From: Eledone cirrhosa
Taxonomy: Eukaryota
NCBI GenBank assembly: GCA_964016885.1
Contig: OZ024740.1
Span: forward strand, 346,642,001-346,706,000
Direction of reading: 5' to 3'
DNA length: 64,000 bases
Below, one piece after another: positions 1 through 55,852 of the stretch (its first letter is position 1; the number at the start of each line of letters is the position of its first letter). The notes below the pieces were generated by a model, which saw only the letters and a program-made list of their open reading frames with translations, was not told where the DNA came from and ran no database searches. The position numbers and the translations under genes are program-made.

Positions 1-1070
1 TTTCCTTGCTGCCTTTACCCCTCTTTGTATGCCTTCGCTTTTGGAGGGTGAATGTAAGTTTTTTTTTTCTTTTTTGTTTTTTGCCAGCCAAGGTATGGGC
101 ACGTCGGGTGGGACCTGGTTTATTTTGACCCTCACAATATTCTGCCCGCAGTAGGAGGGCACCAAGACTAACTCCTCACTCTTTAGGGTTTCCAAAGAGT
201 GAGACTTTGCTTCCTGGGGGGTGGCGAAAAGTACGTCTACTGTGGCGTAATTTCTACCTCGGATGATGTGGGTTTTGCGTGCCCAGACCCACTCCATGGC
301 CTTTTGGATTTGAGCCTCCGTGGCTCTCTCCACTCGATGTGAGATTTTGCTTACGGTGCGGTAAGTCACCGTCCGTAGCTGCTGGTCCTTGAAAAATCGG
401 GTGGAGGTTTTAGGGAAACTCTATTTGCGCTTCTTGTCACCATGGCCCTTGCGACTGCCATCTCCACCTCTGTGACTAACACTGTCTCGATATATCGGGC
501 AACACCTGCAAAAGAAGTGGTCCCTTTTTCAGCAGCACCACTATTGCTGCCGCTACTGGTCTTACTGGTAGTGCTGAGGTCGCTATTACAGGTATCGGTG
601 TCATTGTTGTTCTTTTCGCTGGTACAGTTGTTGGTGTTGTTTTCGTTGATACTGTTGCTGCTGTTACTGTTATTGTGGCTGTTGTTATTATTGTTGTTTT
701 TGTTGATACTGTTCCTACTATTATTGTTGTTGTGGCTGTTGTTATTGTCATTGTTATTGTCGTTCTCGACCTTACCGCTGTTATTTTTGTTATTGTCGTT
801 CTCGACCTCACCGCTGTTATATTTGTTATTGTCGTTCTCCACTTTACCGCTGTTATTTTTGGTGTTGTTGGTGATGTTGTTGGTGTTATTGTTGGTGTTA
901 TTTGTGTTAGAAATATTTGGTAATTTTAAATCTGTAACAATCTTTTTTTTCTTTGTAATATTTTCGTTTATATTTACCTCCGCTGGAACGCTGTCTTGTT
1001 GACATGCTGATAAAGTCTCCCTCTCTCTGTGTTGTCTGACAGCGCTCTCTATCTTTTTTGTGTTATCCAT
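1..1070 (-). pseudogene. ORF1 (gag-like) of Tx1 family C, Asn-rich N-terminus, frameshifted near 370
   Basis: ORF 366..1085 with ATG at 1070, a poly-Asn region and three 36-bp repeats (753-860). B-like ORF1 sequence continues in another frame. Confidence 0.75.
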
Positions 1071-1298
1071 GTTGAAATTTTTCAAAAAATATATTTTTAC
1101 ACAAATACGAATACGAATAAGAATACGACACCCCGTAAAGGGGTGCCGTATTATTTACTAGTGAACCCCTGTATAAGGTGGGTCACTTCTTCTAAATTTT
1201 ATCAAATTTAAAACTTGAATAAAAGGTTTAGAACGGTTGAAAAAGAGGTAAAACGTTGAAAAAGACTGGAGGCGATAAGAGGCGTGGCTTCACCAACA

Positions 1299-1302
<4 letters not shown>
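1..1302 (-). mobile_element. Tx1-like non-LTR retrotransposon family C, 5' portion (runs off the window start)
   Basis: Minus-strand ORF1 region is homologous to family B ORF1 (VTYRTVSKISHRVERATEAQIQKA, LVPSYCGQNIVRV-like). The 5' UTR ends at the (AAT)n tract at 1303. Confidence 0.85.

Positions 1303-1375
<73 letters not shown>
1303..1375. repeat. (AAT)n microsatellite joining the C 5' end and the A1 3' end
   Basis: Pure AAT run read directly from the sequence. Confidence 0.98.
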
Positions 1376-1377
<2 letters not shown>

Positions 1378-1656
1378 CTTCATTTATTGGCCAGAAGGGC
1401 CGACATATAGGGGACAATACAAAAGACCCTGGACAGTGGGGTTTTACAGAAAATTCGAGTAAACAATATGAATAACAATAACAAAGTAACAATAACAAAG
1501 TAACAATAAAGTAACAAGAAAATTAAAACAAGAAAAAATTCTCCAATAAGGGGGATGGCCACCTAGGATTCGCTCAGGTACCCCACCAGTCCTGAACGAC
1601 CCGACGCTTCGAGAGCACCCTGGAAGGTCACCCCTCTGCTCCTCAAATTTACCTAC

Positions 1657-4600
1657 CTACAGCCGCATGTCCAGAGTAGACCTACGCACACGGGCCATTC
1701 TCGCCACATTCGCCACCTCTCAGCAATGTACTGGTGGGCAGCACTTCTCTCTCCAACCTCACCTTCCTTTCCAAGTGAAACTTGAAAAAGTTGATGAGGG
1801 ATTGGCCGAAGATAAAAGTGTCTGTCTTCAGTCCTTTCAACCTCGTCCACCATACAACCTCTTTCGCTACTAACACCAGACAGAGGAAAATTGCCTGCCC
1901 TTCCTGGCCAAAAGAAGGCGGCGTGTCGATCTTCACTATGGACACAGCCGATAGCCGGATCCGTTCTACACGCGACAACAGCTGTTCAACATAACTCCAC
2001 AAGTCAGTAATGCACGGACACTGGACGAGTGCGTGCAGAACGGTTTCGTCGCTCTGCGCGCATCTCGGGTAGGTCCGTCTGACAGCACTTCTGTGCCTGT
2101 AGAGTTTATCTCGAACCGGTAGCACTGCCAAGCGAGGGAGTTTTGGAAATTATCCATCGTCCCCAGCTCCAAAGTCCTCCGGTACAGACTGGTTAGTTCG
2201 ACTTTGTCCGAGTGCGTCGTCGCCCTTGCCCACCACTAATTCTCTATAGAACTCGAGAGTGAAAGTTCCACTGACCGCATTGCCCGCCTGGTAGAAGGCA
2301 GTGAGTGCCTGGCAACATTCCAGATACCAGTCACCCAGTCTCGGACTCTTCTTGACCCAGGACTGCAGTTCAGTCAAAGAAACGAGCTGCGGAAGACCCG
2401 TCTGACAAACGGTGACCGCACCTGTTCACCGTTTAGGCAGAATATCTGGAGACGCAGCAGACTCAGCGCGTGCTAGCGCATCATTAGCGACAGCATGCCT
2501 AGCTCTCCACGTAGAGGGTGCTGGCAGCAGATGGACCGCCTCACCCGCGTAACCTGACCCCTGCACAAGAATTTGAAGAGGAGCCACTCCAAAATGGCGA
2601 GGCGCGAACGGGGGCAAGGGACGACGGTCACACGGTAGTAGATGACGGACGTGATGTACGCGTTCGCCACCTCTGCCCGGCCTTTCAGTGATAGCTTCAT
2701 CCCAGCCCATTTCTGGGTGAGACTGGCTACACTGCCCGTCACCTCGTCCCAATTCTTATCGACCTGGAACTCTGGCCAGAACCAAACCCCTAGCAACTTT
2801 AACGGTCCGTCCGTCCAACGCCTAACGACGCTATTGGACGGCATGGACTTGCCTCTCCAGGTGCCGAGCTGCAAGCCCACCGACTTTTCCGGGTTAAGTT
2901 TTGCTCCCGTCAACCTTTCATATTCCTCCAATAAGTTGCCGACCACCTCGAGTGGATGCTCTGCAACATCTCCAGCTTCCGCAGTAAAGGCTTGAGAGTC
3001 AATACGTACAGAAAGAGAGGACACCTTTGACGGACCGATCGGGACACCTGAAACGGTTCCGAGAGGTGGCCTTAATTTTGACTATCGAGCAGGTGCAGCT
3101 GTGCATTGCAGCGATCCAGCATCTGAAGACGGGGCTGAAGCAAGCCGCCTTGAGGACAGCCTCCAGGTACCGATGGTCGACCCTATCGAATGCTTTCGAT
3201 TGATCTAAATTGATCAAAGCCCCACCGAAGCCAGGTTTTCACCCTACCCTCTCTATAATGTATCGCATTAGGTGGAGGTTGTCGTGTATTGACCTGGTGG
3301 GGATTGCGCAAATGTGCACCTCCCCAACCAAATCCCTAACGACAAGCGCCAACCTCATCGATAACACCCTGGCCAAAATCTTAAACTCTGTTTTGAGCAG
3401 AGTTATGGGCCTGAAATTGTCTAATGTGTCCCTCTTGTTATCGTCTTTCCTTATCACCGTTACTAATCCCCGGCTCACAAAACTGGGAATACTCCCGTTG
3501 TGCTGCCAGTTGCAGTAGAGGGCTTCGAGAAGATTGGAGGACAAGTCTGGCATAATTACGTAAAGCTCGTAGAGCAGACCATCCAAACCGGGTTACTTGC
3601 ACCTCATGCAGCCGACAAGGGCATCCTGAATCTCGGCTGAAGTAATTGGCCGTTCGCAATGTCCAGCGTCAGCCGTCGAGAGTTGCGGTAAGCCATCGAG
3701 GTAGGGAATGAAGTCCGCCACCATCTCTGACCCGCCACTTCCCCCGAACAACCGAGCCAAATGTTGGCGAAAGGCCTCACACATCCTCTTGGAATCGCAC
3801 AGCTCGTGCCCGTCTCGTCCGTCAAAGACCGAATCATCGTGGTTTTATTACGATGCTGCGCCTCTGCCACGCGGGCCCATCGAACAGCTTTGGTTCCCTC
3901 GTTTTTCAGAGCACGCGCCTTAGCTCTGACAATGCAACCTTCGTGTTTCCCATTGAAGTAATGGTCTAATGCCATTTTCGCCGCTAGCACGTCAGTTGCA
4001 ATGCCACTACGAATAGCCTCGTCTAACTTATCTACCAACTCCCCCTTCTTTCTTTTTTTTCTCTAACGCTACTTCTTTGCTAAACTCTATCGACATTACT
4101 CTAATCTCTCTTTTGAGAGCCCCCCACCATCTATTGTTGACGACTCCCCCTGTCAACTTTTTCTTAACTAAATTGTTGACCTGGTCCCTGAAAGCCTTAC
4201 GTGCCCGAAATGACATGTTTAGCTTCAAGTAACCAGGTCCTAACCTACGCGTCTTATCTAGGTCGACCATACAGATCACAAACATGTGATCTGAATAGAC
4301 GGCCGCTTGAAAGCGTGGACAGCTTACACTATTTCTGTGTATTTTCCTAATGAATATCCTGTTAATATACGATCTAGATGACCCTATGCGGTTAGCCCAG
4401 GTCCACACTGGCGCATTAGGGAAATCTAGTTGGTACCTGTCAGACAGTTGGAACTGGCTGATAAGGTTCTGGAGGCTTTTGCACCCCCCTCTCCTATCGG
4501 ATACTCCCACACAGTCACAGCGTGCGTCTAAGATGCCGTTCCAGTCCCCCGCTAACAGTAAAGGGCGAGACGTACCCAGAAAGGCTTCCAGGCGTCTAAA

Positions 4601-4966
4601 GAAGTCCGGCCGTCCTGCCCCAGTAGGAGCATAGACGGCCACCAGTCTAAAGGCACCACCTTCGTTATTGTTCACGTCAAGGACCACCAACTTCCCGTCC
4701 GGGTCGCGGAAGATCAACCTTACCTCGAGATCCAGGCCTTTCCTAAACAGCACTGCCACCCCGCCTCCCATTCGCGGCCGGCTAACAGATGCAACGATCT
4801 GATAGTCGTCGAAAATGGGGGCTAGTGCGCGCGTGTCGGAAATCCTGGTCTCGCTGACGGCAATTACATCCATTTCTATAGACCTGAGGTCGTTGATAAG
4901 GTGACCCTGCTTCCAGGACGATCCCAGGCCTCGAACATTTAAACATCCTACTCTTAATACGGCCAT
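1657..4966 (-). pseudogene. A1 ORF2: APE endonuclease, reverse transcriptase and C-terminal zinc finger, disrupted
   Basis: Motifs LNVRGL, AVSET, AVYAP, AGDWN, YSDH (APE); DGLxYE, NFRPITLL, LDQSKAFDRVDH (RT); xxRCAQSDETVLHALVQC. A short deletion near 2950 removes AYADD. Multiple frameshifts. Confidence 0.92.
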
Positions 4967-4997
4967 GTTGGCAGGTTAAAAAGCGAGAGAGGAAGGT

Positions 4998-7001
4998 TTA
5001 CTTACCTTCCGGGCTCTTGTGAAGGTCGGGTTTTTCGACTTCCATAGTTGGTGGGGTTTCTTTTGGGAACACCTTTAAAAGTCTTGAAGTGGGTTTTACG
5101 TTCGGGGTTTCCACGTCCCGAGGATAGATAGCTGTCTCGTATTTCTTTGAATATATCGAGCGACATTCGCACCAGAAGCAAATCTTCCGGCACGCGAAAT
5201 GTGCTCGGTTTAAAAATGTCCCCCTCATTAAGTATATTTTCACTTCGTGCTACGAGGGCCATCAGTTCCTTGTTGGCCCCCCTGACGAGCACGAAGTTTT
5301 GTATGTTTTGTTGGTGTGATTTTATTTGTTTGGTGATGGTTTTGGTGGTTTTGTTTCGGTTGTATCTGTGTTTGTTGTGATTGCGGTGTCTGTGGTTTCA
5401 GATGATTGTGTGTATATTTGTTCTTGCGTCTGTTTTGGTTGTTTGCGTTTGGTGGATTCTGGTCATGGTGATGGTGGTGTTGATGTTGGTGTTATTGGAG
5501 AGATGTTTGCGTGGGTGGTGTCTGCGTTTTTTATTGTGGGTGATTTTGTGCTTTGTTGATTTTTTTTTCTTTTTGTGTTTCCTTTTTTGACTTTTGGGGG
5601 ATTTGGATTTTCCCTCATCTTCACTACTGGTAGATGAGGGGTCTGTGTCTGTAAGTGTGTCTGTATGTATGTTTATGGTTTTATTGGTGTGGGTATTTTG
5701 GGGGGGAGGGGGAATTTGACAGCTTTCCTCGTTTCCCCCCTGGATGGTCAATGTTGGTGGTGGTTTTTCTATTGGTGCTGTTGTTGGTGTTTTTGCCGGT
5801 GCTGGTGTTGGTTGTGGTCCTCGCCCCGGCGTCAGCAGCAGTGGAGCCTTTAGACTCCTTGCCTCTTTCAGCAGTTGAGGGCAGAAGGCTCGCAAATGGT
5901 TTTTTTCCCCACAAACAAAACACTGCGGCCTTTTGCCTTCGGTCATAATGTGAATGACCGTCCCATTCTGAAGGCGTATGTGGTCCGGTATTGTCTTCAC
6001 ATTCTCGGGCCTGATCTGGAGAAGGATCTCCAGGTCAACCCCGAATCAGTCCTCTCTGGCCGTTCTGGTCACTTCTATAGGGACGGTATCCGTCCCCTCC
6101 ACAATCACACATCCCAGAAGCCACCACATGTCAAGTCCTGGTGGGATTCTGGGAATGCGGAGACGGGCAGTTCTGTTTGCCATGTGGGAGGGGTACATTA
6201 TGACATTGCTGGTTTTGCAAGGAGTCATAGCGTGTTTCATAGCGAGGGCTTCTGACTTGAACAACACCGAAATGGTGCCGTACTGTCTGCCCCTCTCTAT
6301 GTATTCGGTGTCTTCTCTGATGCACCTCAGCGCGACCTCGTCATCTTCTTGTGGGATTAAATCCGCCCTTTTGGTTTGTGCTAAGACGCATCTATAATGC
6401 ACCATTCTGCGCTCCACTGCCTCAATAGCTTCTACCGGCCGAGTTAAGTTGGCGCAGGTTTGCTCTTGCTTGGTGAGCTTCCATGCCTGGGCCAACTTTT
6501 CATCTTTATTTCAGAGGTCCATGTTGAAGCATGGTCTCTTTTTTGCTCCTGCCGCAGCGAAAGTGTTCTTCTTGTTTTCTTTGGGGGTGTTGTTGTCGTT
6601 GTCGTTGTTCTTGTTGGTGTTGTTGTTATCACTGTCGCTGCTATAATTGTTGTCTTTGTTGGCACCGTTGTTCTCGGTGCAGTTTGTATTGTTGCTGGTG
6701 GTGTTGTCGCTATTGTTTTCATGTTAGTGGTGTTGATATTGTTGTTGCATTTCTTTTTTTTTTATGTTATCTGCATTTTCGTTTAGGCTGTTAACGTAAT
6801 TTTTTTCAAAATTACGTTTCTCATTGATATCATTGGTGTCTTTGTTTAGATTGTTTGTGATGGTGTTTGTGTTATCAATTTGTGTTAATTTCGCTGTAGC
6901 GCTCCTCTCAACTTCTACGTCGTTGTCGCACGACAGCAGACGTATCGCTGCGGGCGTGGCTCAGCTATATGTTTTTGTTGTCTCCGTAAATGTTTGAACA
7001 T
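4998..7001 (-). pseudogene. A1 ORF1 (nucleic-acid-binding protein), disrupted
   Basis: Asn/Thr-rich N-terminus, central domain, knuckle CFVCGEKNHLRAFC (about 5881-5922), Pro/Thr linker and Lys-rich patch, spread over several ORF fragments. Confidence 0.85.
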
Positions 7002-7178
7002 GTAAAAAAAAGTTCAAATATTTGGGCCAAAAGTTCAAATATTATACTTTCCCCTTCACAGGGCAAATTCTAAGGGCGTATATCCCTTACACAACAAGAA
7101 ATATTTAACAACAAATAATTTTAATAGGCAAATAAAGCGACTTACTGGGAGCGAGCCAAAAAGACGTCCGAACAGACC

Positions 7179-7211
<33 letters not shown>
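7179..7211. repeat. (AAT)n junction tract
   Basis: Direct read. Confidence 0.97.
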
Positions 7212-7212
<1 letters not shown>

Positions 7213-7314
7213 TTTTCTTTATTAACCACAAGGGTTCACATAAAGTAGACATTAAGGACAGTACAGGACAATACAGGACGGTACAAATGGGCATTTCTGC
7301 GTGTAAAAAAACAG
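7212..7314 (-). mobile_element. Tx1 family B 3'-terminal stub (about 100 bp)
   Basis: Nearly identical to the B 3' ends at 10314, 13949 and 46746. Flanked by (AAT)n on both sides. Confidence 0.92.
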
Positions 7315-7332
7315 TAATAATAATAATAATAA

Positions 7333-10149
7333 TAATTCTCAAAAACATTATCATCACAAACAAAATAAACATTACTGACTTAAATCATCTCTATTATGCA
7401 TCGGCTAAAGTCACCACTCACTTATGTGGAGTGAAGATGAAAAAACAAAGGAATTCCCACAAGAAATCTACTTGGCAAGATAACATCAATCGCCAAATAA
7501 ACCTTCTCCGATCTGACATAGAAATTTTAACAAACTATAAAGTAGGTGAACATGTTAAACAAACTAAACTTAGAAAATTGAAAAAAAAGTACAGTATAAG
7601 ATCAACATGTGAAATAGACATGCTGATAGAAACAATCAAGCAAAAAGTGTCGGCCAAAGCTGCTCGTATAAGGCGCTTTGAAAAACGATCTAGATTCTAT
7701 AAGGACAATAATATGTTCAAAAACAACCAAAGAAACTTCTACCGAAAAATTGGTAAGTCAACAATAACTGCTAAATCAATACCACCCAAGGAGGAAGTGC
7801 AAGAATTCTGGGAAAAGATCTGGGCCGAAGAAAAAGTTCATAACATACATGCCCCATGGATAGACAGACAAATGAAAGAAACAGCTCACCTTGAAGAACA
7901 AACATGGGAAAATATAACAGTTGAACAGCTGCGCTTGGCTCTAAGAAAAACCAGCAAATGGAAATCCCCAGGAAAAGACAAAATACAAAACTTTTGGATA
8001 AATACCTTCACAGAGTCTCATGAGCTGTTAGCCCAACTTTACAATGAAATAGTTAAGGAGCCAGAAAAGATACCATCATGGCTAGTTAACGGCATTACAT
8101 TCCTGCTACCGAAGAATGATGAGACAAACAATCCCAAAAATTACAGACCGATAACCTGCTTGACCACAATGTATAAAATTTTAACATCAGTCCTAACTGA
8201 ATACACATATGACCACCTGATAACAAATGTCCTATTTCCCATTGAGCAGAAAGGGTGTAAACGAGGCTCATATGGCTGTAAGGATCAGCTTCTGGTTAAC
8301 AAAATGATACTGGAAGATTGTCATAATAGACACAAAAATCTATCGATTGCTTGGATAGATTATAAAAAAGCATTTGATAGTTTGCCACACAGTTGGATTG
8401 AAAAATGTTTAGAGATTTTCAAAATATCCCCCGTTGTCTGGAGGTTTTTGTCATTCAGTATGAGGATATGGAGAACGACACTCCTTTTGAATAGTGAAAC
8501 AAAATCACTGGAAGCTGGAGAAGTTAACATTAATTGTGGAATTTTTCAGGGTGACTCTTTATCACCGCTTTTATTCTGCATCGCACTTATACCATTAAGT
8601 AAAATGCTCAATGAAACAAAACATGGATATAGAGTCTATGACAAAACCATTAATCACCTGTTCTACATGGATGACCTGAAACTATTTGCAAAAAATGATG
8701 AACAATTGCAAGGGCTATTATCCACTGTGAAGCAGTTCAGTGATGACATTAAAATGGAGTTTGGACTGGATAAATGCGCCAAAGCAACGTTCACCAGAGG
8801 AAAGCTGCTGAAGAGTTCAGACATTAATCTTGATCGGGGGAACGTGATAAGAGAGCTTGATCAAGAACAAACTTACAAATATCTAGGTGTTTGTGAAGGA
8901 GACGGAATCAAGCACTCGACAATGAGGGAAAGGATAAGGAAGGAATGTTACCGCAGAGTCAGACCAATCTTAAGAACAGAATTGAATGCAAGGAATAGGA
9001 TCGATGCCATAAACACGCTTGCCATACCAGTAGTAACCTACAGTTACAATGTCATCAACTGGTCAAGCACAGAGATCCGTAGGCTCGATACAAAAATCCG
9101 AAAATTCTTAACCATGCACAGAATGCATCACCCTAAGGCAGACATAGATAGAATATATCTCCCTAGGAAAGAAGGAGGACGTGGGTTAATCCAGTTAGAC
9201 ATTGCGTTGAAAACTGCAACAATTGGATTATCCACATATCTAAGGGAATCACATGATTGGATGATCAAACTCGTTTTGAAACACGGAAGCACCAAAAGAT
9301 CATATTCCATTACAAAAGATGCACAAAGATACAGTAATGGACTACAAATTTCAGAAGTCCCATTTACTGCTGAAATGGAAAACACAGAAAAAGCAAAGCA
9401 GGTAAAAGTAACTGCAAAGAAAGAACTGCTACAGAAACTGGCTAAGAAATGGCAAGAAAAGCCTCTGTATGGAAAATACCCAGAGCGAGCTAACAATCCT
9501 GATGTTGACAAAACTTTAACCCATCAGTGGTTGGCATCCTCTGGACTGAAATCGGAGACTGAAGCACTGATTATATCCGCACAAGATCAGTGTCTGCCAA
9601 CAAAAAATTACCAAGCCAACATAATAAAAAATGGGTGCAGCCCATTATGCCGTGTATGCAAAAAACAACCAGAGACCATTGACCATATAATTTCAATGTG
9701 CAGTCCTATAGCATTTTGACCTGCCCCATCAAAAGAATTGGTGGGAGCATCAACCACCTCCCATACTTGAAAAAGATCACATCTCAATCTTGTGGAACTT
9801 TAGCATCCAAACAGACCGTAAAATAGATGCAAATAGACCTGATATAATATTGAAGGACTTTCAAAGGAGGGTATGCCTGCTAATTGATATGTCTGTTCCA
9901 ATAGACAAGAATGTATCTATAAAAACATTTGAAAAATTGAGCAAGTATAAGGACCTGGAGATAGAAATTGGAAAAATGTGGAAATTGAGAACTAAAACAA
10001 TACCAGTGGTTGTAGGCGCTCTGGGAATGATACCTAAGGGGTCTAACGACTACTTATCGCAAATCCCAGGAAACCCGCGTATAGGAGAAATACAAAAGAT
10101 AGTACTAATGGGAACTGCCCATATACTAAGGAAGATCCTGTCAATATAA
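7333..10149 (+). pseudogene. Dong-like RT-RLE polyprotein, about 800 codons open, then a deletion/frameshift near 9707
   Basis: ORFs 7287..9719 and 9790..10149. The RH[D/N]-containing segment present in copy 2 (about 17610-17680) is missing here. Confidence 0.88.
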
Positions 10150-10287
10150 GTACATCACAAGTCTAAACACTAAGGATGCATGTGTGAATATGTGTGTTCT
10201 TTCTTGAACATGGCGGACCTTGTTGTCTCTTGAGGTCACTGGTTGTGACTTGGTGATAACTCGTATAAACATAAAGCAAGATAAATG
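7333..10287 (+). mobile_element. Dong/R4-clade non-LTR retrotransposon (RT + RLE), 5'-truncated copy 1
   Basis: RT motifs WKSPGKD, NYRPITCL, EQKGC, WIDYKKAFDS, GIFQGDSLSP, HLFYMDDLK; CRVC...ETIDHI; RLE RPDII...LIDMSVP...EKLSKYKDL; (TAA)n tail from 10288. Confidence 0.93.
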
Positions 10288-10313
10288 ATAATAATAATAA
10301 TAATAATAATAAT
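10288..10313. repeat. (AAT)n shared by the Dong tail and the B1 tail (tail to tail)
   Basis: Direct read. Confidence 0.96.
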
Positions 10314-13300
10314 GATTTCTTTATTAACCATAATGGTTTACATAAAGTAGACATTAAGGACAGTGCAGGACAATACAGTACGGTACAAATGGGCATTTCT
10401 GCGTGTAAAAAACAAAAACAGAGGATGTAACAAAAAAAACAATGAAAAATTCCCCAATAGGGGGGAGACTTCGGAGGGACATTTGTGGAGAAAGCCCAGT
10501 AAAAGGCCACAGTGACCCTGACCACCAAGGCAAGTGCCCTCTCCCAGTTTTCCACCTTTAATTTACAGATAGGTACTCAGAGTAGGCCCATTCACTCGGG
10601 CCATTCTTGCTTCTCTCACCCATCTTTCAACAAAATGCTGGGAAGATAGCACTTCCCTCTCTATTCTGATTTTCCCTTTCAAATGAAATTTGAAAAAGTC
10701 AATCAGGGCATCACCGAAGAGGTAAGTGCTCGTCTTCAGCCCTTTCAAAAGTGGCCACCATACTATCTCTTTCGCCATGGCCACCAGACAGATAAAAACT
10801 GCCTGCCCTTCCCGGCTAAAGGAAGGGGGCGGGGAAATCCTCACGATGGTCTCTGACCATAGCCGGATCCGTCCTACACGCGACAGCAGGTGTTCGACAT
10901 AAACCCACAAGTCACCAATTTTCGGACACTGGACGAGTGCGTGCAGGACGGTTTCGTCGCCCAGCGCGCATCTAAGACATGCCCGGCTGACGGCACCTCC
11001 ATGCCTGTAGAGTTTAGCCCGAACTGGCAAGGCTCCTCGGTAGCACTGCCAGGCCAGAGATGTCTGGAAGCTGTCCATAGGTCCCGGCCCGAAAGTTTTT
11101 CCGAAGTGATTGGCTAGTTGATTTTCGTCGACGCCTAGAATTTCCCCAAGTACGTCATCGCTCTTCCCGTCCACTAATCCTCTATAGAACGCCGAGGTGG
11201 AGTTTCCACCGATCACATTGCCCGATTGGTCGAGGGCTGTGAGCGCCTGAAGACATTCCAGTCTCCAAGCGCTCCCTCTCGGTCTTCGCTTGACCCAGGA
11301 CTGCAGCTCCGTCAAGGAAACGAGCTTGGGAAATGCCTACACATTGGGAGATGCGTACACATCGTAGCCGCCGAAGATCGGTGCGAAGGCCCGTGTTTCG
11401 GAGATTCTGGTCTCGATGATGGCCACTACATCTATGTTTAGTGACCTGAGGTCGTTGAGCAGGTGACCCTGCTTCCATGACGACCCCAAGCCACGCGTAT
11501 TTATGCTGCCTATTCTGAGTGAGGTCATGTTTAAAATAGAGTGGAAAAGATGGGAAAGACCACTGACCGTACTTTTCGTAGAGGAAGGATGGTTTCTCCA
11601 TCCCTTTTCATTTGGTCGTCTGGTGAAAGGACCGTTGAATCATCCCTTCGGCTGGTCGTCGGCTCTTCTATGAGTATGTCCGAATATACTCTCCGGTTGA
11701 GAGTCCCTCCTAGGTTTCTGAAATCACCAACTTCGTTGGGGAATTTCGTTTTAATGTTTGTGTATTGTTTCTGTGCTCTTTTTAGCAGTCTTATGTTCGT
11801 TGGCGTTTTGATTGGTGCTGGTATTATGTAGTCGTGCTGTGAAATGTCTGTGTGTTCAATTATGTAAGTCATTAGTTTCTTGTTGTGTGTATTTATTGCC
11901 GTGCCTTTGTTTTTCTGGGGGTGAGGTGTGGTTCTGCTATTTTCGTGTCGTTGTTGCTGTGTGTGTGTGTTTTGTTGATGTGTTTGCGATGTTGGTGCTT
12001 GTGGTGGTGGTGTTGAAGTTGTTGTTGTTGTTGGCGGTGGGGTTTTCCCCGGTGGTGATGGTGGTGCTAGTGTGGGTGGTGATGGTGTTGTTGGTTTTGC
12101 TGCTGTGAGTCTCTTTGCAGTAGCCTTTACCCTTTTTTCATTTCTTTCCTATCCTTTCGAAGGCGACGATGCGCTGCATCTGAGTTTGTGCCTTCTTACG
12201 ACCTTTTACCATCCCTCTCCCACCAAACGCTCCATATCTGATTCTGTGAGGTCGGGGAGGGGTACCAGCTCCACTCTTTCACTTCTTGTTGTTGGTGATG
12301 TTTGCACTGGAGTCTCTGTTGCAGCTACATTTGGTATTAATGTTGTTGTTGTTGTTAATACTTCCACTGCTGCTGCTGTTTTTGATTTCCGTGGTGTGGG
12401 TATGGGTTCCACGGACCTATCGTTCCTGGTTGCTGCTTGTCCTGTTGCTGGTAGCCGTGGAGCCGGTTTCGGAAGGAGAGGGGTTTTCTCCTTTCTCAGA
12501 GTCTTCTCGTTGCAGAAGGCCCTCAGGTGAGTCTTCGATCCACAGCGAAAGCATTTCGGGCGTTTGCCGTCAACACTTATGGGCAGTTGAGTGCCATTAT
12601 TGAAGTCTATCACATCCGGGATAGCTTCGATGCACTCCTGGTTGGTTTGGATTAACATCTCAATGGAGGTGCCAACCCAATCTTCTGTTACTTTTTTCTG
12701 TACTTGCAGTACAGTTGCTTTGTCCTCGATTCCGACGAGGACAGACGCGGCCAGTCAAGAAGGAGCCATCCCGGGGTGTGGGGGCGGTCAGTTTGACCCT
12801 CACAATTTTTTGCCCGCAGTAGGAGGGCACCAACACCATTTCCTCGCTCCTTAGGGTCACTAAGGATTGAGCCTTTGCCTCCTGGTGTTTGGCAAAAAGC
12901 ACGTCTACGGTGGCATATTTCTTGCCTCGGGTGATGTGCGTTTTCCGCTGCCACACAAACCCTAAGGCTTTTTGTATTTGAGCCTCTGTGGATCTTTCAA
13001 CCCTACGTGATTTTGTGCTTACTGTTCGGTACGTGACCGTACAGTGCTGTTGGGTTTCGAAAAATGTTTCGGCTGCCTTACAGATTGCTCGGTATCCAGT
13101 TTTTGTCACCATCTTCTTCGCTTCCTGTAATTCCTCATTTGTTATGAGGATGGTTTCCAGGTTCTTTACGATACCTGCAAACGAGATTGGTTTTTCTTTG
13201 CTGCTGTTGTTGTTGTTGTTGTTGTCATCAGAGCTGCTGTTGCTTTTGTTGTGTTGCTGCAGGTACTACGACTACTGCCGCCGTCGCTGTTGCTGCGGTT

Positions 13301-13885: not shown

Positions 13886-13948
<63 letters not shown>
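13886..13948. repeat. (AAT)n junction tract
   Basis: Direct read. Confidence 0.98.
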
Positions 13949-13949
<1 letters not shown>

Positions 13950-14916
13950 CTTTCTTTATTAACCACAAGGGTTTACACAAAGTAGACATTAAGGACAGTA
14001 CAGGACAATACAGGACGGTACAAATAGGCATTTCTGCGTGTAAAAAAACAAAAAAATAGAGGTTTTAATAAAAGAACAATGAAAAATTCCCCAATAGGGG
14101 GGGAGACTTCCGAGGGCCATCGTGGAGAAAGCCCATTAAAAAAAGCCACTGTGACCCTGACCACCAGGGCAATTCTCCTGTCCCAGTTTTCCACCTTCAA
14201 TTTACAGGCATATACTCCTAGTAGGTCCATTCACACGGGCCATTCTTGCATCTCTCACCCATCTTTCAACAAAAAGCTGGGAAGAGAGCACCTCTCTCTC
14301 TACCCTGATTTTCATTTTCAAATGAAATTGGAAAAAGTCAATCAGTGCATCACCGAAGAGGTAAGTGCTCGTATTCAGCCCTTTCAGACGCGTCCACCAT
14401 ACTATCTCTTTCGCTATGGCCACCAGACAGATAAAAAACTGCCTCCCCTTACCGGCTAAAGGAAGAGGGCGGGGAAATCCTCACGATGGCGACTGCAGGT
14501 GTTCGACATAAATCCAGAAGTCAGCAAGCTCGGACACTGGACGACTGCATGCAGAACGGTTTCATCGCCCTGCGCGCATCTAGGACATGTCCGGCTGACG
14601 ACGCCTCGTTGCCTGTAGAGTTTATCCCGAACTGGCAAAGCTCCTCGGTAGCACTGCCAGGCCAGGGATTTCTCGAAGTCGTCCATAGGCCCCGGCCCGA
14701 AAGTCCTTCCAAAGATATTGACTAGTTTATTTTCTTCGACGCCTAGAGTTTCCCATAGTACGTCGTGGCTCTTCCCCTCCACTAATCCTCTATAAAACGC
14801 CAAGATGGAGTTTCCACCGATCACATTACCCGACTGGTCGAGGGCTGTGAGCGCCTGAAGACATTCCAGTCTCCAAGCGCTCCTTCTCTGTCTTCGCTTG
14901 ACCCAGGACTGCAGCT
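13949..14916 (-). mobile_element. Tx1 family B copy B2, 5'-truncated (about 1 kb of the 3' end)
   Basis: B 3' UTR plus the ORF2 C-terminus (CPRCAQGDETVLHAVVQC). Ends at GGACTGCAGCT. Confidence 0.92.
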
Positions 14917-14919
14917 ATA

Positions 14920-17900
14920 CGAAGAATATACGAAGAAATATTGTTAAAAAAACGTTACTAACTGATATAGAAATTGATCAGATCAAGCAATTAGCACAAA
15001 GTCATCGAAGGGAAAATAAAACATGTGTCAGTTAAAACGAGGTAAATTGTAACACTTCGCATCCCAGGGTGGAGGCGGATCATTGACAGAAGAACAAATT
15101 AAAGAAAGGTTCATAAAAGTTGAGGGTGTGCATGCTCAAGATGAAACTCAAAACGAAAACAATGAGATCGTAATTGATAAAGAAATGAATGAGAATGAAC
15201 TTGCCAACTTGAAGAATGAAATTATGATCGAATGGATGAAAATGAAAGAATCTGACATGGGGAACGAGACACTCTCCCTAAGATCCAGAACTCCAAACAG
15301 AACCAAAATATAATACACAAGACTAACTTAATTCTCAAAAACATTATCATCACAAACAAACTAAACATTACTGATCTAAATCATCTCTATTATGCATCGG
15401 CTTAGGTGGAGTGAAAATGAAAAAAACATAGGAATTCCCACAAGAAACCTACTTGGCAAGAGAACATCAATCGCCAAATAAACCTCCGATCTGACAGAAA
15501 TTTTAACAAGCTACAAAGTAGGTGAACTTGTTAAACAAACTTAGAAAATTGAAAAGAAAATACAGTATAAAATCAACAAGTGACATAGACATGCTGATAG
15601 AAATAATCAAGCAAAAAGTGTCGGCCAAAGCTGCTCATATAAGGCGCTTTGAAAAACGATCTAGATTCTATAAGGACAATAATATGTTCAAAAACAATCA
15701 AAGAAACTTCTACAGAAAAATTGGCAAGTCAACAATAACTGCTAAGTCAATACCACCCAAGGAGGAAGTGAGAGAATTCTGGGAAAAGATCTGGGCCGAA
15801 GAAAAAGTTCATAATATACATGCCCCATGGATAGACAGACGAATGAAATATACAGCTCACCTTGAGGATCAAACATGGGAAAATATAACAGTTGAACAGT
15901 TGCGTTTGGCTGTTAAAAAAAACCCCATCAAATGGAAATGCCCAGGAAAAGACAAAATACCAAATTTTTGGTTAAATGCCTTCACAGAGTCTCATGAGCT
16001 GTTAGCCCAACTTTACAATGAATTGGCTAAGGAGCCAGAAAAGATACAATCATGCCTAGTTAACGGCATTACATTCCTACTTCCGAAGAATGATGAGACA
16101 AACAATCCCAAAAGTTACAGACCGATAACTTGCTTGACCATAAAGTATAACATTTTAACATCAGGCCTAACTGAATATACATATAATCACCTGATAACAA
16201 ATGATCTATTTACCAATGAGCAGAAAGGTTGTAAACGAGGCTCATATGGCTGTACGGATCGGCTTTTGTTTAACAAAATGATACTGGAAGATTGTCATAA
16301 TAGACAAAATATCTATCAATTGCTTGGATAGATTACAAAAAACATATGATAGTTTGCCACACAGTTGGATTGAAAACTGTTTAGAAATTTTCAAAATATC
16401 TCCCGTTGACAGGAGGTTCCTGTCATTCAGTATGAAGAGATGGAAAACGACACACCTTTTGAATAATGAAAGAAAATCACTGAAAGCTGGAGAAGTTAAT
16501 ATTAATTGTGGAATTTTTCAGAGTGACTCTTTATCACCGCTTTTATTCTGCATCGCACTTATACAATTAAGTAAAATGCTCAATGAAACAAAACATGGAT
16601 ATAAAGTCTATGACAAAACCATTAATCACTTGTTCTACATGGATGACCTGAAACTATTTGCAAAAAATGATGAACGATTGCAAGGGCTATTATCCACTGT
16701 GGAGCAGTTCAGTGATGACATTAACATGGAGTTTGGACGAGATAAATGCGCCAAAGCAAGGTTCATCAGAGGAAAGCTGCTGAAAAGTTAAGACATTAAT
16801 GTTGATCGGGGGAATGTGATAAGAGAACTTGATCAAGAAGAAAATTACAAATATCTAGGTGTTTGTGAAGGAGACGGAATCAAACACTCGACAATGAGGG
16901 CAAGGATAAGGAAGGAATGTTACCCCAGAGAAAAAGCAATCTTAAGAACGGAATTGAATGCAAGGAATAGGATTGATGCCATAAACACGCTTGCCATATC
17001 AGTAGTAACCTATGTCATCAACTGGTCAAGCACAGAGATCCGTAGGCTTGATACAAACATTAGAAAATTCTTAAATATGCACAGAATGCATCAACCTAAG
17101 CAGATACAGATAGAATATATGTCACTAGGAAAGAAGGAGGACGTGGGTTAATCCAGTTAGATATTGCGGTGAAAACTCCAACAATTGGATTATCTACATA
17201 TCTAAAGGAATCACATGATTGGATGATCAAACTCGTTTTGAAACACGAAAGCATCAAAAGATCATACTCCATTACAAAAGATGCACAAAGATACACTAAT
17301 GGACTACAAATTTCAGAAGTTCCATTTACTGTTGAAATGAAAAACACAGAAAAACAAAGCAGGTAAAAGTAACTTCAAAGAAAGAACTGCTACAGAAACT
17401 GGCTAAGAAATGGCAAGAAAAGCCTCTGTATGGAAAATACCCAGAAAGAGTTAACACTCCTGATGTTGACAAAACATTAACCCATTAGTGGTTGGCATCC
17501 TCTGGACTGAAATCGGAGACTGGAAGACTAATTATCTCAGCACAAGACTAGTATCTGCCAACAGAAAACAACCAGAGACCATTGATCATATAATTTCAAT
17601 GTGCAGTCCTTTAGATCCAACCGAATAGCTAAATAGGCACGACCCAGCTGCACAATACATACATTGGATAATGTGTAAGAATTTTGACCTGCCCCATCAA
17701 AAGAATTGGTGGGAGCATCAACCACCTCCCATACTTGAAAAAGATCACATCTCAATCTTGTGGAACTTTAGCATCCAAACAGACCGAAACATAGATGCAA
17801 ATAGACCTGATATAATACTGAAGGACTTTAAAAAGAGGGTATGCCTGCTAATTGATATGTTCGTTCCAATAGACAAGAATATATCGACAAAAAGGTTTGA

Positions 17901-18254
17901 AAAATTGAGCAAGTATAAGGACCTGGACATAGAAATTGGAAAAATGTGGAAATTAAGAACTAAAACAATACCAGTGGTTGTAGGCGCTCTAGGATGATAC
18001 CTAAGGGTCTAATGATTACTTATCGCAAATCACAGGAAACCCGCGTATAGGAGAAATACAAAAGATAGTACTAATGGGAACTGCCCATATACTAAAGAAG
18101 ATTCTGTCAATATAAGTACATCACGAGGCTAAACACCTAAAGTTGCATGTGTGAGTATGTATGTTCTTTCTTGAACATGGCGTACCTTGTTGTCTATTGA
18201 GGTCACCTGTTGTGACTTGGTGATAACTCGTATGAACATAAAGCAAGATAAATG
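14920..18254 (+). mobile_element. Dong/R4-clade retrotransposon copy 2 (longer 5' region, decayed)
   Basis: Colinear with copy 1 from about 15330 and extends about 410 bp further 5'. Has YMDD and the RLE motifs, many stops and the same 3' terminus AGCAAGATAAATG. Confidence 0.93.
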
Positions 18255-18259
18255 CAGCT

Positions 18260-18298
18260 ATAATAATAATAATTATTATTATTATTATTATTATTATT
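18260..18298. repeat. (AAT)n/(ATT)n tract with a polarity switch near 18272
   Basis: TAATAATAATAATTATTATT read directly. Confidence 0.95.
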
Positions 18299-18489
18299 GA
18301 ATGCGATGTTTGACGGAGGCTCGGCTGTGTAAGGTATAGTAATTTTTAACCGCTATAACAATTTTAAATTGTTTAAAACTTGAACCAAATTGAGAGAGGT
18401 CTTTCTGACCGTTATTTAGCTCTTCGGGGTTAAATAACCGCTTATTTGGGTTTAGTGCCCAATATTCATTTTAAACCGTAATAAAAAAC

Positions 18490-20612
18490 ATGGCTACAAA
18501 AAAGAATTTTCACAAGTCACACCCACTCTTTCCGTCTTCTTCTTCCTCAACCGTCATTACGTCAGAGAGAAGATTGTCTCTCTCCCTTCCTTCTCTAAAT
18601 GTGGTGTCGCCTCTTTCGCAAGCGACGCCATTAAAGAAAAAGAAAAATATAGTTTCTGGTAGCTTTCACCAAGAGAACGTGCATACCGTGGAACATTTCT
18701 CCACGACGACGACAACGACGAGAAATGTGTGCGGTAAATACGGAAGGCCATTTCATTCGACTGACGTCATGAAGAATAGTAGCAGCAGCCGTAATAACAG
18801 CAGCAGCAGCAACAGTGACAAGGAAAACACTAGTAGCAACCGTAACAACATCAGCTGCAGCATAACCAACAACAGCAGCAGCAGCAACAGCAACAACAAC
18901 AGCAGTAGCAGCAGCAGCAACAACAACAACAACCACGTCAACAGCGGTGGCGGCGGTCGTTGTAACAGCAGCAACAACAAAAGTAACAGCAGCTCTGACG
19001 AAAACAATAACATCAACAAGACAAAAAAAAACAATCTCGTTTTCAGGTATCGCAAAGAGCCTGGAAACCATCCTTATAATAAATGAGGAATTACAGGAAG
19101 CAAAGAAGATGGTGCCGAAAACCGGACACCGATCAATGTTCAAGGCAGCCGAAAAATGTTTCGAAACCCAACAGCACTGTACGGTCACGTACCGTACAGT
19201 AAGCACAAAATCACGTAGGGTTGAAAGAGCCACAGATGCTCAAATACAAAAAGCCTTAGGGTCTGTGTGGCAGCGGAAAACGCATATCACCTGAGGCAAG
19301 AAATATGCCACAGTGGACGTGCTTTTTGCCACACCCCAGTGACCCTAAGGAGCGAGGAAATGGTGTTGGTGCCCTCCTACTGCGGGCAAAACATTGTGAG
19401 CGTCAAACTGACCGACGTTCCACCCAGGATGGCCCCTTCTTCGCTCGCCACGTCTGTCCTCGTTGGAATCGAGGACAAAACCACTGTACTCCAAGTACAG
19501 AAAAAAGTACGAGAAGATTGGGTAGGCACCTCCATTGAGATGTTAATTCAAACCAACTAGGAGTGCATCGATGTTATCCCGGATGTGATAGACTTCGGTA
19601 ACGGCACTCAACTGCACATAGGTGTTGAGGTCTGACGTCCGAAATGCTTTGGCTGTGGGTCGAAGTCTCACCACAGGGCCTTCTGCAATGAGGAGACCCT
19701 GAGAAAGGAGAAAACCCCCCTCCTTCCGAAACCGGCTCCACTGCTAGTAGCAACAGGACAGGCGGCAAGCAGGAAGGATAGGTCCGTGGCACCCATACCC
19801 ACGCCACGGAAATCAAGAACAGCAGCAGCAGTGGAAGTATTAACAACATCAACAGTAATACCAACTGCAGCTGCAACAGAGACTCAACTGCAACCATCAC
19901 TAACAAGAACAAGTGAAAGAGTGAAGCTGGTACCCCTCCCCAACCTCACAGAATCGGACATGGAGTGTGAGATAGGAGAGGGATGGCAAAAGGTCGCCAG
20001 AAGGCAGAAACGCAGAAGAAGCGCATCGTCGCCTTCGAAAAGGGAGGGAAGAAATGAAAATAGGGTAAAGGCTACTGCAAAGAGACTTAAATAGGGTAAA
20101 GGCTACTGCAAAGAGACTTACAGCAGCAAACCAACGACACCATCACCTCCCACACTAGCACCACCATCACCACCGGCGGCAACCCCACCGCCAACAACAA
20201 CAACACCTTCAACACCACCACTACAAGCACCAACATAGCAAACACAACAATAAAACACACACACCCAGCAACAACGACAAGAAAATAGCAGAACCATACC
20301 CAACCCCCAGAAAAAGAAAGGCACAGCAATAAATACACACAACAAGAAACTAATGACATACATAATTGAACACACAGACATTTCACAGCACGACTACATC
20401 ATACCAGAACCAATCAAAACACCAACGATCATAAGACTGCTAAGAACAGCACAGAAACAATACACAAAAATTAAAATGAAATTCCCCAACGCAGTTGGTG
20501 ATTTCTGAGACCTAGGAGGGACACTCAACCGGAGAGTATATTCGGATATACTCACAGACGAGCCGACGACCAGCCGAAGGGAGGATTCAACATTCCCTTC
20601 ACTGATCAAGTG
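18490..20612 (+). pseudogene. B3 ORF1, Asn/Ser-rich N-terminus, CCHC knuckle, disrupted
   Basis: ORFs 18490..19086, 18947..19294, 19267..19560 and 19786..20094. A 31-bp tandem duplication lies at 20058-20119. Confidence 0.85.
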
Positions 20613-20691
20613 AAAAGGGATGGAGAAACGATCCTTCCTCTACGAGAAGTTAGCTAAGTTGTCTTTCCCATCTTTTCCACTCCATTTCAAC

Positions 20692-23600
20692 ATGACCTCA
20701 CTCAGAATAGGCAGTATAAATGCGCGTGGCTTGGGGTCGTCATGGAAGCAGGGCCACCTGCTCAACGACCTGGGGTCACTAAACATAGATGTAGTGGCCA
20801 TCAGCAGGACCAGAATCTCCGAAGCACGGGCCTTCGCACCGTCTTCGGCGGCTACGATGTGTACGCTTCTCCCTGCCGTCCTGGATCGAAGGGAGGAGTT
20901 GCTGTCCTTTTTCGGAGAGATTTGGATCTCGCCATACTGGCCATCTTCCTGGACCCAGAAGTTAAGTTGTTGGTGCAGGACGTGACCAGCGGAGACGCGC
21001 AAGCTTTCAGGCTAGTGGCCGTCTATGCCCCGACAGGAGCAGGGCGGCCCGATTTCTTCTGGCGTCTGGAAACCTTTCTAGGAATGTCCAGCTCTTTAGT
21101 GATAGTGGGCGACTGGACCGGGATCTCGTATGCACGTTGGGACTGTGTGGGATTAGCAGATAGGGTAGGATGGTGCAAGAGCCTCACCAACCAGCTCAGG
21201 CGTTTTGAACTGTCTGAGAGGTACCGATTGGATTCCCGAATGTGCCAATGTGGACTTGGACAAACCGCGTCGGTTCATCCAGATCATATCTAGATAGAGT
21301 ATTTTGTAGGGAAATAGATAGGTCTAGCATAGGCTGTCTACAATTCAGGATAGTCAGCTACACGGACCACAAATTCGTGATATGTGTGCTTGACTTAGAT
21401 ATTCTTCATAGACGAGAACCCGGCTACTGGAAGCTAAACGGGTCCTTACCAGCGCGCAATACCTACATAGACGGGATTAGCGAACTAGTTAAGCGGGCTT
21501 TGACGGGGGCCATCGTCAACAACCAGTGGTGGTTTGCTCTGCAAAGAGCGATTAGAATAGAGTGCATTAGGTTTAGTAAGGCTTTAGCCATAGAGAAAAA
21601 TAGAGCAGAGGGAGAACTAGTTAGAAAATTAGACGAGGCGCTTAGCAAAGGCATCGCGATCGATGCTCTTGCGGCGAAATTGCCCCTTGAACAATTCTTC
21701 AATGCAAAGCACGAATGCTGCGTTTTCAGAGCTAGGTGCGTGCTCTCAGACACCAGGAGACGAAAGCCATTCAATGGGCCCTAGTGGCGGAGGCGCGTCG
21801 TGGCAACAAAGCTACTCGATCCTGGGCAAATGTGTGAAGCTTTTCAGCGACGCTTTGCTCAGCTGTTCGGGGGTAGCGGCGGGCCAGATCGAGGGTTGGA
21901 CTTTAGTGTTTACCTCGACGGACTGCCGCGGCTCCCGGCCACTGAGGCGGAGTGTTGCGAAAATCCGATAACAGCAGCTGATGTATGGGAGGCAATGACT
22001 GGGTGCACAAGGGGTAAATCGCCTGGTTTGGATGGTCTGCCCTATGAACTTTACGTACAGTTGCCAGACTTGTTCGGAGACCTCTTGGCGGATGTCTACT
22101 GCAACTGGCAACAGAACGGGGAATTCCCAGCTTTGTAAACCGAGGAGCCCGTGGCGTTGCTGAAAAAGGATCCGAACAAGAGGGATAACATAGATAATTT
22201 CAGGCCTATAACTCTTCTAAATACAGAGTTCAAGATTTTGGCCAAGGTGCTAGCAAAGTGGTTGGCGCTTGTCGTTGGTAGTCTGGTAAGAGAGGCGCAG
22301 ACATGGGCCATTCCCGACAGATCCATCCACAACAAGCTCCACCTCATGCGATACATTGTGGAGTGGGTAGCTAGGGTACCTGGCACGGGTGTGTCCTTGA
22401 TCAATTTAGATGAGTAGAAAGCTTTCGATTGGGTCGACCATCGTTATCTGGCGGCTGTCCTGAGGGCGGCTGGCTTTGGGCCCGTCTTCAGAGGCTGGAT
22501 CACCGCCATGCACAGCGACATCTGCTCTGTAGTGAGAGTGAACGGTCACCTTTCGGAACCGTTCAACATCATGCGCTCGGTCCGCCAAGGATGTCCCCTG
22601 TCGTCCATCTTGTACGTATTTACTCTCGAGCCATTACTGCACAAATTGGAGACATTGAGGGGGGGGGGGATCCCGCACGAATTAGGATGCGGAAGATCCG
22701 TGTCAGCATATGCGGACGATGTCACCGTAGTGGTGTCGAACGCAAAACTGATCGAGGCGATCGGCACTACACTAAGAGAATACGAAGCGATGACAGGAGC
22801 AATGATCAACCAGGAAAAGTCGGTGGTCCTGCAGTTCGGCAACTGGAGAGGCAGGTCCATGCCGTCCAACGGCGTCGTCTGGCGCTGGACAGACGGACCA
22901 ATTAAATTGTTAGGGGTCTGGTTCGGTCGGGACCTCCAGAGGGACAAAAGCTGGGACGAGGTGACGAGCAGGGTGGCTTCTCTCACCAATAAATGGGCAG
23001 AGAGGAAGCTATCCGTGAAAGGTCGAGCGGAGGTGGCGAACGCGTACATCGCGTCCATCATTTACTACGGCCTGACCGTCGTGCTTTGTCCTAAGCCTCG
23101 CCTGACTGCGCTGGAGCGTTTGCTATTTCACTTTTTGTAGAAGGGACGCGCTCCGTTGGTCAGCCGGTCCATCAGCTGTCAACACCCGCTACGTGGAGGG
23201 CGGGGCTTGCCGTGGCTATGATGTGCAGACACGCGCTCAGGCTACGACACTCCACCTCTTCCTCGACGCTGATCAGGTGTGGTTGCCGTTTGCTAGACGC
23301 GTCTTTCCCCAGCTCATCTCCTTGACGGAGCTGCAGTCCTGGGTCAAGCGAAGGACGCGAGGGAGCGCTTGGAGACTGGAATGTCTTCAGGCGTTCACAG
23401 CCCTCGACCAATCGGGCAATGTGATCGGTGGAAACTCCACCTCGGAGTTCTATAGAAGATTAGTGGAGGGGAAGAGCGACAACGTACTTTGGGAAACTTT
23501 AGGCGGCGACGAAAATCAACTAGCCAATCTCTTTGGAAGAACTTTCGGGCCGGGCCTATGGACAACTTCCAGAAATCCCTGGCTTGGCAGTGCTACCGAG

Positions 23601-24065
23601 GAGCTTTGCCAGTTCGGGATAAACTCTACAGGCAAGGAGGTGTCGTCAGCCGGGCATGTCCGAGATGCGCGCAGGGCGACGAAACCGTCCTGCGTGCACT
23701 CGTTCAGTGTCCGAGCATTGCTTGGGTTTATGTCGAACACCTGCTGTCGCGTGTAGGACGGATCCGGCTATCATGTGAGTCCATCGTGAGGATTTCCACG
23801 CCCTCTTCCTTTAGCCGGGAAGAGCAGGCAGTTTTTATATGTCTGGTGGCCATGGCGAAAGAGATAGTATGGTGGACGCGTCTGAAAGGGCTGAAGACGA
23901 GCACTTACCTCCTCGGTGATGCCCTGATTAACTTTTTCCAATTTCATTTGAAAAGGAAAATCAGGGTAGAGAGGGAGGTGCTCTCGTCCCAGCTTTTTGT
24001 TGAAAGATGGATGAGAGATCAAGAATGGCCCGAGTGAGTGGCCCTTCTGAGTATATGCCTGCAAA
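20692..24065 (+). pseudogene. B3 ORF2 APE-RT-CCHC, disrupted
   Basis: SINARGL, AVYAP, VGDW, YTDH; KSPGLDGLPYE, NFRPITLL, VRQGCPLS, AYADD; CPRCAQGDETVL. Confidence 0.92.
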
Positions 24066-24434
24066 TTGAAGGTGGAAAACTGGGCGAGGAGAATTGCCCT
24101 GATGGTCAGGGACACCGTGGCTTTTTTAATGGGTTTTCTCCCCGATGGCCCTCGGAAGTCTCCCCCCTATTGGAGAATTTTTCATTGTTCTATTATTACA
24201 TCCTCTGTTTTGTTTTTGTTTTTTGCAGGCAGAAATGCCCATTTGTACCGTCTGTATTGTCCTATACTGTCTATAATGTCTACTTTATGTAAACCCTTTT
24301 GGTTAATAAAAAAGCATTATTATTATTATTATTACTATTATTAGAACAACAACAACAACAACAAAACGCAAAAAAAGAAGAAATAGAAAGGACAAGAAGA
24401 TATATATTTATAAATATAGTGTTTGTGAATTCGT

Positions 24435-41886: not shown

Positions 41887-41897
41887 AAAGTACAAAG

Positions 41898-41910
41898 ATA
41901 ATAGTAATAG

Positions 41911-41959
<49 letters not shown>

Positions 41960-42034
41960 GCTGCTGCTGCTGTTGCTGCTGTTACTACTACTACTATAAC
42001 TACTACTACTACTACTATTACTACTAATAATAAT
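41898..42034. repeat. (TAC/TGC/TAA)n compound tract
   Basis: Direct read. Confidence 0.95.
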
Positions 42035-55844: not shown

Positions 55845-55852
55845 ATAATAAT

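Follow-up and report, generated by a model that had tools for sequence, protein, structure and literature searches.

An active APE-type retrotransposon lineage directed to (ATT)n microsatellites in Eledone cirrhosa, its probable partner SINE, and a Dong/R4-like element on the opposite strand

Retrotransposons of the L1/Tx1 group carry a separate first open reading frame (ORF1), which outside mammals contains a CCHC knuckle, and typically end in a 3' poly(A) tail, though this is no strict criterion. Members of the Tx1 clade are described from microsatellite targets, namely Kibi from (TC)n, Koshi from (TTC)n and crocodilian Tx1 elements from (TTCC)n or (TTTC)n (PMC4494074, PMC3812793; further targets stand in Figure 3 and the supplements of PMC4494074, outside the material compared here), and the mechanism of microsatellite targeting has been called not well understood (PMC3812793). 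The Dong/R4 clade, of which DongBg from the snail Biomphalaria is one member, targets TAA microsatellites (PMC3812793), and Keno and Utopia converge on U2 small nuclear RNA (snRNA; PMC4640811). Stringent pairs of an L1-group long interspersed element (LINE) with a short interspersed element (SINE) are described for monocot LINE1-1_ZM with ZmSINE2 (PMC3747384) and for Tx1-Mar with SINEU (PMC4494074). L1-Tx1 and Dong-R4, the two classes treated here, were recently active in Octopus vulgaris, and the passages compared mention no targets, duplications or partner SINE (PMC13282606); passages on octopods name Dong-R4 (PMC8967140, PMC9115989) and L1-Tx1 (PMC8967140) and give no targets.

We analysed a 64-kb stretch of Eledone cirrhosa DNA (the window; contig OZ024740.1, positions 346,642,001 to 346,706,000), together with the 3.0-Gb genome around it. 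The window contains trains of elements from families A, B and C, which carry two open reading frames and encode an apurinic/apyrimidinic endonuclease (APE) and a reverse transcriptase (RT). Like Kibi, Koshi and crocodilian Tx1, these are L1/Tx1-group APE-RT elements in a specific microsatellite, and the lineage appears to work as Kibi and Koshi do on a new motif. Unlike Kibi and Koshi, which we compared by description only, it has (ATT)n/ATTA as its target, lacks poly(A), shares a 3' hairpin with a SINE and combines several types of 5' untranslated region (UTR) and ORF1 with near-identical second frames (ORF2). A full-text literature search, with Repbase and key surveys outside its scope, found no (ATT)n-targeting Tx1 family, and an earlier description is possible.

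Junctions were collected across the genome using 5' UTR patterns that excluded the tract, which gave 615 matches for B, 396 for C and 131 for A; the first 30 copies of each family by position formed the 5' sample. The 5' end lay directly after (ATT)n of at least three units in 88/90 copies (B 29/30, C 29/30, A 30/30), nearly always in phase and with G as the first base. Most 5' junctions thus carry (ATT)n, the point on which a preliminary description of the window had staked its proposal of an (ATT)n-specific lineage. In a 3'-anchored sample of 57 loci, 34 of the 36 full-length B or B2 copies had at least three perfect units upstream. All 30 sampled 3' ends started with ATT, and genome-wide 7,018 of 9,045 B-type 3' ends (78%) preceded three perfect units. 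We retrieved 39 copies of a further family, C2, and 37 of these had both ends; at least three perfect units were present upstream in 35/37, the two exceptions being interrupted tracts, and downstream in 36/37, with at least four perfect units on both flanks in 34/37. Chance is excluded as the cause of these tract-abutting ends, because only 0.32-0.37% of background positions have an (ATT)n tract of at least three units no more than 20 nt upstream. The association is real and genome-wide for APE-type elements, and the lineage is (ATT)n-directed and strand-polarised.

Truncated copies and target-site duplications bear on whether the repeat is a target or a tail. The 5'-truncated copies carry no 5' leader. 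Of the 32 scored, five were set aside: L164, L175, L218 and L226 as internal deletions or chimeras, and L198 as a duplicate. An upstream tract was seen by eye in 13 of the remaining 27 (one interrupted, one with a short intervening piece) and one or two units in a further five; the scripted score alone found an upstream tract in 6/21 truncated copies of the 3'-anchored sample. Two full-length C2 copies have interrupted tracts in which the duplication can be read: the two flanks of L465 share an identical 15 bp that includes a GTT interruption, and those of L476 an identical 18 bp. Truncated copies show duplications of 16-17 bp (L201), 11 bp (L182), 8 bp (L181) and 7 bp (L197) with no added units. 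A dispersed carrier repeat (1,205 matches) contains a compound ATT/GTT tract that serves as a landing site for B, C, C2 and the opposite-strand element D described below (L483-L512). Its empty paralogous sites have a median of 6 units, with 20/30 loci fitting a strict pattern, and the flanks of three solo filled sites sum to 12, 11 and 15 units (p=0.003). In contigs from public sequencing runs at L061 and L465 no empty-site joint was found, the repeats either flooding the contigs or being skipped. The interrupted-tract duplications and the paralogue sums therefore indicate that the target is renewed by duplication and not by a tail. The (ATT)n repeat is a pre-existing target, and new targets arise from target-site duplication and splitting of the tract; the earlier proposal that tails create new targets fails on the legible duplications, which have no added units.

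ORF2 encodes an N-terminal APE, an RT and a C-terminal zinc motif, zf-RVT (Pfam PF03372, PF00078 and PF13966). Its best match among solved structures was human L1 ORF2p (E 3e-52, against 1e-21 for R2), to which its catalytic motifs align. ORF1 of B and C2 contains a CX2CX4HX4C (CCHC) motif that is also present in U2-inserted relatives, and a Pfam scan of ORF1 returned no family above the cut-off. The RTs of A, B, C and two further families, B2 and C2, are 76-84% identical, so that what had been taken for four divergent families is, for the APE type, one close lineage. These five form a single clade (Shimodaira-Hasegawa-like approximate likelihood ratio test 100) whose sister proteins are 40-44% identical. 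In quick tree searches, from which matches of fewer than 230 aligned residues were excluded and which contained no named Tx1 references, the clade and U2 snRNA-inserted elements (Keno-type by target, from Rfam) met in a fork of unresolved order. The junctions show sequence-directed insertion into a repeated target, a trait of the Tx1 clade. In the copies inspected the lineage has no poly(A) and its 3' ends pass straight into ATT; poly(A) tails are present in metagenome relatives (L317, L319). Judged from these protein and tree comparisons, A, B, B2, C and C2 belong to the L1/Tx1 group and may belong to the Tx1 clade in the strict sense.

B2, which emerged from the 3'-anchored sample, has an ORF2 about 95% like that of B, and its first 2.2 kb (5' UTR and ORF1) are unrelated to B (L202, L195 and others); this 5' region is its own, which rules out B2 as a family A element with a B ORF2. 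C2 (L454), found by searching with a distant RT, likewise has its own 5' end, with an ORF2 90% like that of C. A 1,150-aa frame is open at more than 100 of 150 scored C2 places and the copies are about 99% identical. C2 is a very young family and the lineage is active. A further family (L482), with an intact 1,101-aa frame, nests inside the clade with support 99; L425 and L429 are related families on its branch.

In long matches the metagenome relatives show only 23-37% identity, and five or more perfect ATT units in a row were seen in 0/22 inspected. On metagenome contigs L316, L319, L317 and L326, relatives lie beside U2 snRNA in two cases and beside U1 snRNA in two, of which one was recognised by Rfam and the other by eye; these would be Keno-type and possibly U1-targeting elements. 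A search at the precise 5' ends of four loci returned no Rfam self-cleaving ribozyme at E<=2. Near-identical pieces of family B also occurred in sequencing runs of several other organisms, some at very low depth, which may reflect kinship, contamination or transfer. One short match was to an Octopus sinensis protein, which fits an octopod host. By eye, the 5' ends of A, B, B2, C, C2, the fourth family of the window and one Dong-like element, unrelated in other respects, contain a similar short motif whose distance to the first base is about 25-40 nt (seen at window positions 18299-18340 and 41850-41880, and in an element downstream of L284); it is possibly an internal promoter element.

A tRNA-type SINE in the window was used as a 33-mer to search the genome, giving 40,537 matches, some of which are tandem repeats of the SINE head. 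From 30 loci we removed five in one tandem array and two without a 3' end. The 3' junction started with ATT in all 23 remaining copies and with ATTA in 22/23, and 17/23 have a duplication of 10 bp or more (16-22 bp in 12/23). A hairpin with a 3-4-bp stem and an identical 5-nt loop, placed 16-17 nt ahead of the end, is common to the SINE and all LINE families. Of its four pairs, three show changes on both sides, a covariation matched by 1/500 shuffles, and L482 retains the hairpin with additional compensatory changes. Since the 3' hairpin and the ATTA junction are held in common with the LINEs, the SINE is likely a partner moved in trans by this lineage. It resembles LINE1-1_ZM/ZmSINE2 and Tx1-Mar/SINEU in having a LINE-SINE 3' hairpin with compensatory changes or a common target, and differs from those pairs in that similarity is confined to roughly the last 25-45 nt, and in having a SINE far less tract-bound than the LINE. 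The head contains A- and B-box-like motifs by eye and had no Rfam match; it also occurs in tandem arrays with a 45-bp period (L245-L250; 10.53-10.54 Mb). Another hairpin with this 5-nt loop lies in the 5' region of B2 (L200, L090). Octopus SINEs of Ohshima and Okada 1994 are cited in PMC4824008 and PMC4758252.

The train contains a second kind of element, which the preliminary description overlooked or mislabelled. The copies D1 and D2 carry RT, CCHC, RHD and PD..D..K motifs and no APE, and among solved structures they match R2 proteins only. D is likely a Dong/R4-like element of an already known kind, with a restriction-like endonuclease (RLE), on a known target. It reads (AAT)n on its own strand, the reverse of the polarity of A, B and C. 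Its matches number 4,554 in the genome, and an AAT tract on its own strand was present at 30/30 3' ends and at 10/12 truncated 5' junctions (L300 excluded as an internal deletion), the other two lying on (AAG)n. A second Dong-like family, E, is frequently tail-to-tail with B. Both D and E resemble Dong in their RLE enzyme and in (TAA)n at both ends. D itself is nothing new compared with published Dong; the addition is that its tracts are shared with an APE lineage of opposite polarity. APE and RLE elements here occupy one target in parallel, as do Keno and Utopia, and unlike that pair they use a microsatellite, on opposite strands, in one genome.

We delimited the elements of the window by self-BLAST and by reading of the junctions, as follows.

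1..1302, minus strand: family A, comprising the 5' UTR and the beginning of ORF1; remainder upstream of the window (L263, ~5998-10000)
1303..1375: (AAT)24 tract separating the A 5' end from the C 3' end
1376..7178, minus strand: family C, decayed and nearly full length, with its APE domain in 4031-4975
7179..7211: (AAT)11 tract
7212..7314, minus strand: B-type 3' fragment of ~103 nt, 5'-truncated, with a tract on each side
7315..7335: (TAA)7 tract
7336..10286, plus strand: D1, probable Dong/R4-like RLE element, 5'-truncated, not Tx1; own strand reads (AAT)n
10287..10313: AAT tract common to D1 and B, which lie tail-to-tail
10314..13885, minus strand: family B, both ends intact, large internal deletion
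13886..13948: (AAT)21 tract
13949..14916, minus strand: B 3' part, head-to-head with D2, no tract between
~14917..18259, plus strand: D2, probable Dong/R4-like RLE element, 90% identical to D1
18260..18298: (AAT)4 then (ATT)9 (18272-18298); the polarity changes within the tract
18299..24315, plus strand: B3, an inverted family B copy, full-length, decayed; 3' hairpin, AATAAA-like signal, no poly(A)
24316..24343: (ATT)6 and interrupted units
25227..25415, plus strand: tRNA-type SINE copy with the shared 3' hairpin and ATTA junction
near 39796-39957 and 60868-61009: further SINE copies
40735..55890, minus strand: second cluster, which also holds a tiny B 3' piece; tracts short or interrupted
~40746-41880, minus strand: second cluster, decayed fourth family; tracts of only two units or interrupted
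~42036-46722, minus strand: second cluster, C
~46747-52771, minus strand: second cluster, B
~52794-55845, minus strand: second cluster, deleted C

The first train (1-24343) thus runs in the order A 5' part, C, 103-nt B fragment, D1, B, B 3' part, D2 and B3, and extends about 5.2 kb upstream of the window with the rest of A, a further D piece and an A-type fragment (L263). All its junctions have an AAT/ATT tract except 14916/14917. The claim that every intact terminus abuts such a tract stands for the APE-type termini of this train and not for that tract-less join; the tracts of the second cluster are short or interrupted. Likewise, every APE-type element, including the inverted B3, reads (ATT)n on its own strand, as had been stated, and the D1 and D2 pieces, together ~6.3 kb, read (AAT)n. 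The family D of that account is ambiguous between the RLE element and the decayed fragment near 40746-41880. No element ends in the TA, CA, CT or GAA arrays of the window by self-BLAST, as first reported. An AT/AC-rich microsatellite array of 2.2 kb (33932-36114) contains no element termini. The window copies are old, those of one family being 84-94% identical.

Head-to-tail arrays were also foreseen, and by eye 38/90 full-length 5' ends lie directly behind the 3' end of another family member (B 9, C 14, A 15). Five C2 copies are spaced at 5,840 bp, with five-unit spacers at both junctions seen. In a B triple (L072-L074; pairwise identities 97.2, 97.9 and 95.9%), an ORF1 frameshift links the middle copy to one neighbour, and its overall identity is higher to the other, which suggests that arrays are also built by unequal crossover.

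Taken together, we put at about three in four the probability that one active two-ORF APE-RT lineage inserts in phase at ATTA, mostly in (ATT)n, and duplicates 15-18 bp in the clearest young copies. L1-type endonucleases prefer T/A, and the APE would likely nick the AAT strand at a T/A step, as the fixed phase suggests. The RT would likely bind the 3' hairpin and start from the last base of the element, and a second nick would likely follow 15-18 nt downstream on the ATT strand, the duplication then arising from staggered nicks in target-primed reverse transcription. A stagger of 15-18 nt would leave about five or more units on each side and therefore fresh targets after every insertion. Trains would grow by insertion of several families, opposite-strand Dong-like elements and SINEs, and by unequal crossover.

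Several observations weigh against this reading. Three perfect units are missing at 22% of B 3' ends, and 9/27 truncated copies have no upstream ATT at all, two lying directly after (CTT)n (by eye). The full-length B copies L061 and L066 allow a duplication of at most 3 bp, and the array L072-L074 has a 42-bp duplication beginning with GTT. The paralogue comparison includes only three solo filled sites, and related sequences may beat shuffles in the hairpin test without any structure. Both visible 3' ends of L482, at one locus, enter TATC-type repeats; a target switch on that branch is possible, and the lineage, while (ATT)n-directed and strand-polarised as first proposed, is not uniformly ATT-bound. 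The SINE lies inside (ATT)n of at least three units in only 2/23 copies, so that one enzyme would need two levels of specificity.

This last point favours the strongest of the alternatives, which we regard as less likely than not: the APE would require only a short ATTA(T), and read-through AUU units at the end of the RNA, by pairing with the nicked (AAT)n primer, would account for the preference for long tracts. The SINE has the same junction and is seldom in long tracts, against 78% for B. A polyadenylation-like signal lies 6-8 nt ahead of the tract, so that RNA cleavage would occur within it, and poly(A) is never copied. Set against this, the SINE might be mobilised by another, relaxed family, and the read-through AUU ends are themselves conjectural. 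This alternative only relocates the specificity and leaves the rest of the model unchanged.

It is improbable that full-length RNA brings an (AUU)n leader from its donor site and joins by homology at the 5' end, part of the upstream tract travelling with the element. Such a leader would fit the difference between full-length (88/90) and truncated (13/27) copies in upstream tracts, as well as L061 and L066 with their long upstream tract and single downstream unit; in the full-length copies L465 and L476, however, the upstream flank ends in an exact copy of the interrupted downstream tract, with only one or two perfect units. The mechanism first suggested for the window, in which an (ATT)n tail added by the element makes the next target, is largely refuted. 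Nearly all 3' ends do continue into ATT units, and truncated copies L189, L231, L274 and L278 combine a long 3' tract with the absence of an upstream one, but 3' ends with a single unit exist (L061, L066, L182, L197), legible duplications lack added units, and the paralogue sums are consistent with duplication alone. Unbiased insertion with copies surviving or assembled only in tracts, plentiful as these are in the genome, is refuted by the fixed phase and by a strand polarity that is fixed and opposite to that of the Dong-like family; the elements are also absent from the commoner TA/CA arrays, and 99%-identical young copies show the same pattern.

In 4/9 truncated B copies without a tract, the partner in a head-to-head join is a truncated Dong-like piece (L270, L276, L278, L228), as at window position 14916, and later deletion is the simplest reading of these joins. 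More speculatively, and with the odds against it, a single APE-RT machine may target the microsatellite strictly for its own RNA and a loose 5-bp site for the SINE, in which case the 3' end of the RNA, and not the endonuclease alone, would set specificity. The APE and RLE lineages would on this tentative scheme divide the strands of the tract, seed each other's targets and sometimes prime both strands of one site; if true, such priming would explain the tract-less head-to-head joins.

These results add (ATT)n/ATTA to the known targets of Tx1-type elements and offer a measured route by which such elements replenish the sites into which they insert. Near-identical intact ORF2 copies stand at more than 100 of the 150 C2 places scored, and targeting is therefore testable with natural proteins, with the SINE as a built-in control that has the junction in common and not the tract preference. 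The lineage is the likely driver of one very abundant SINE of this probably octopod genome, and with the Dong-like elements it provides a case of APE/RLE convergence on opposite strands of one repeat.

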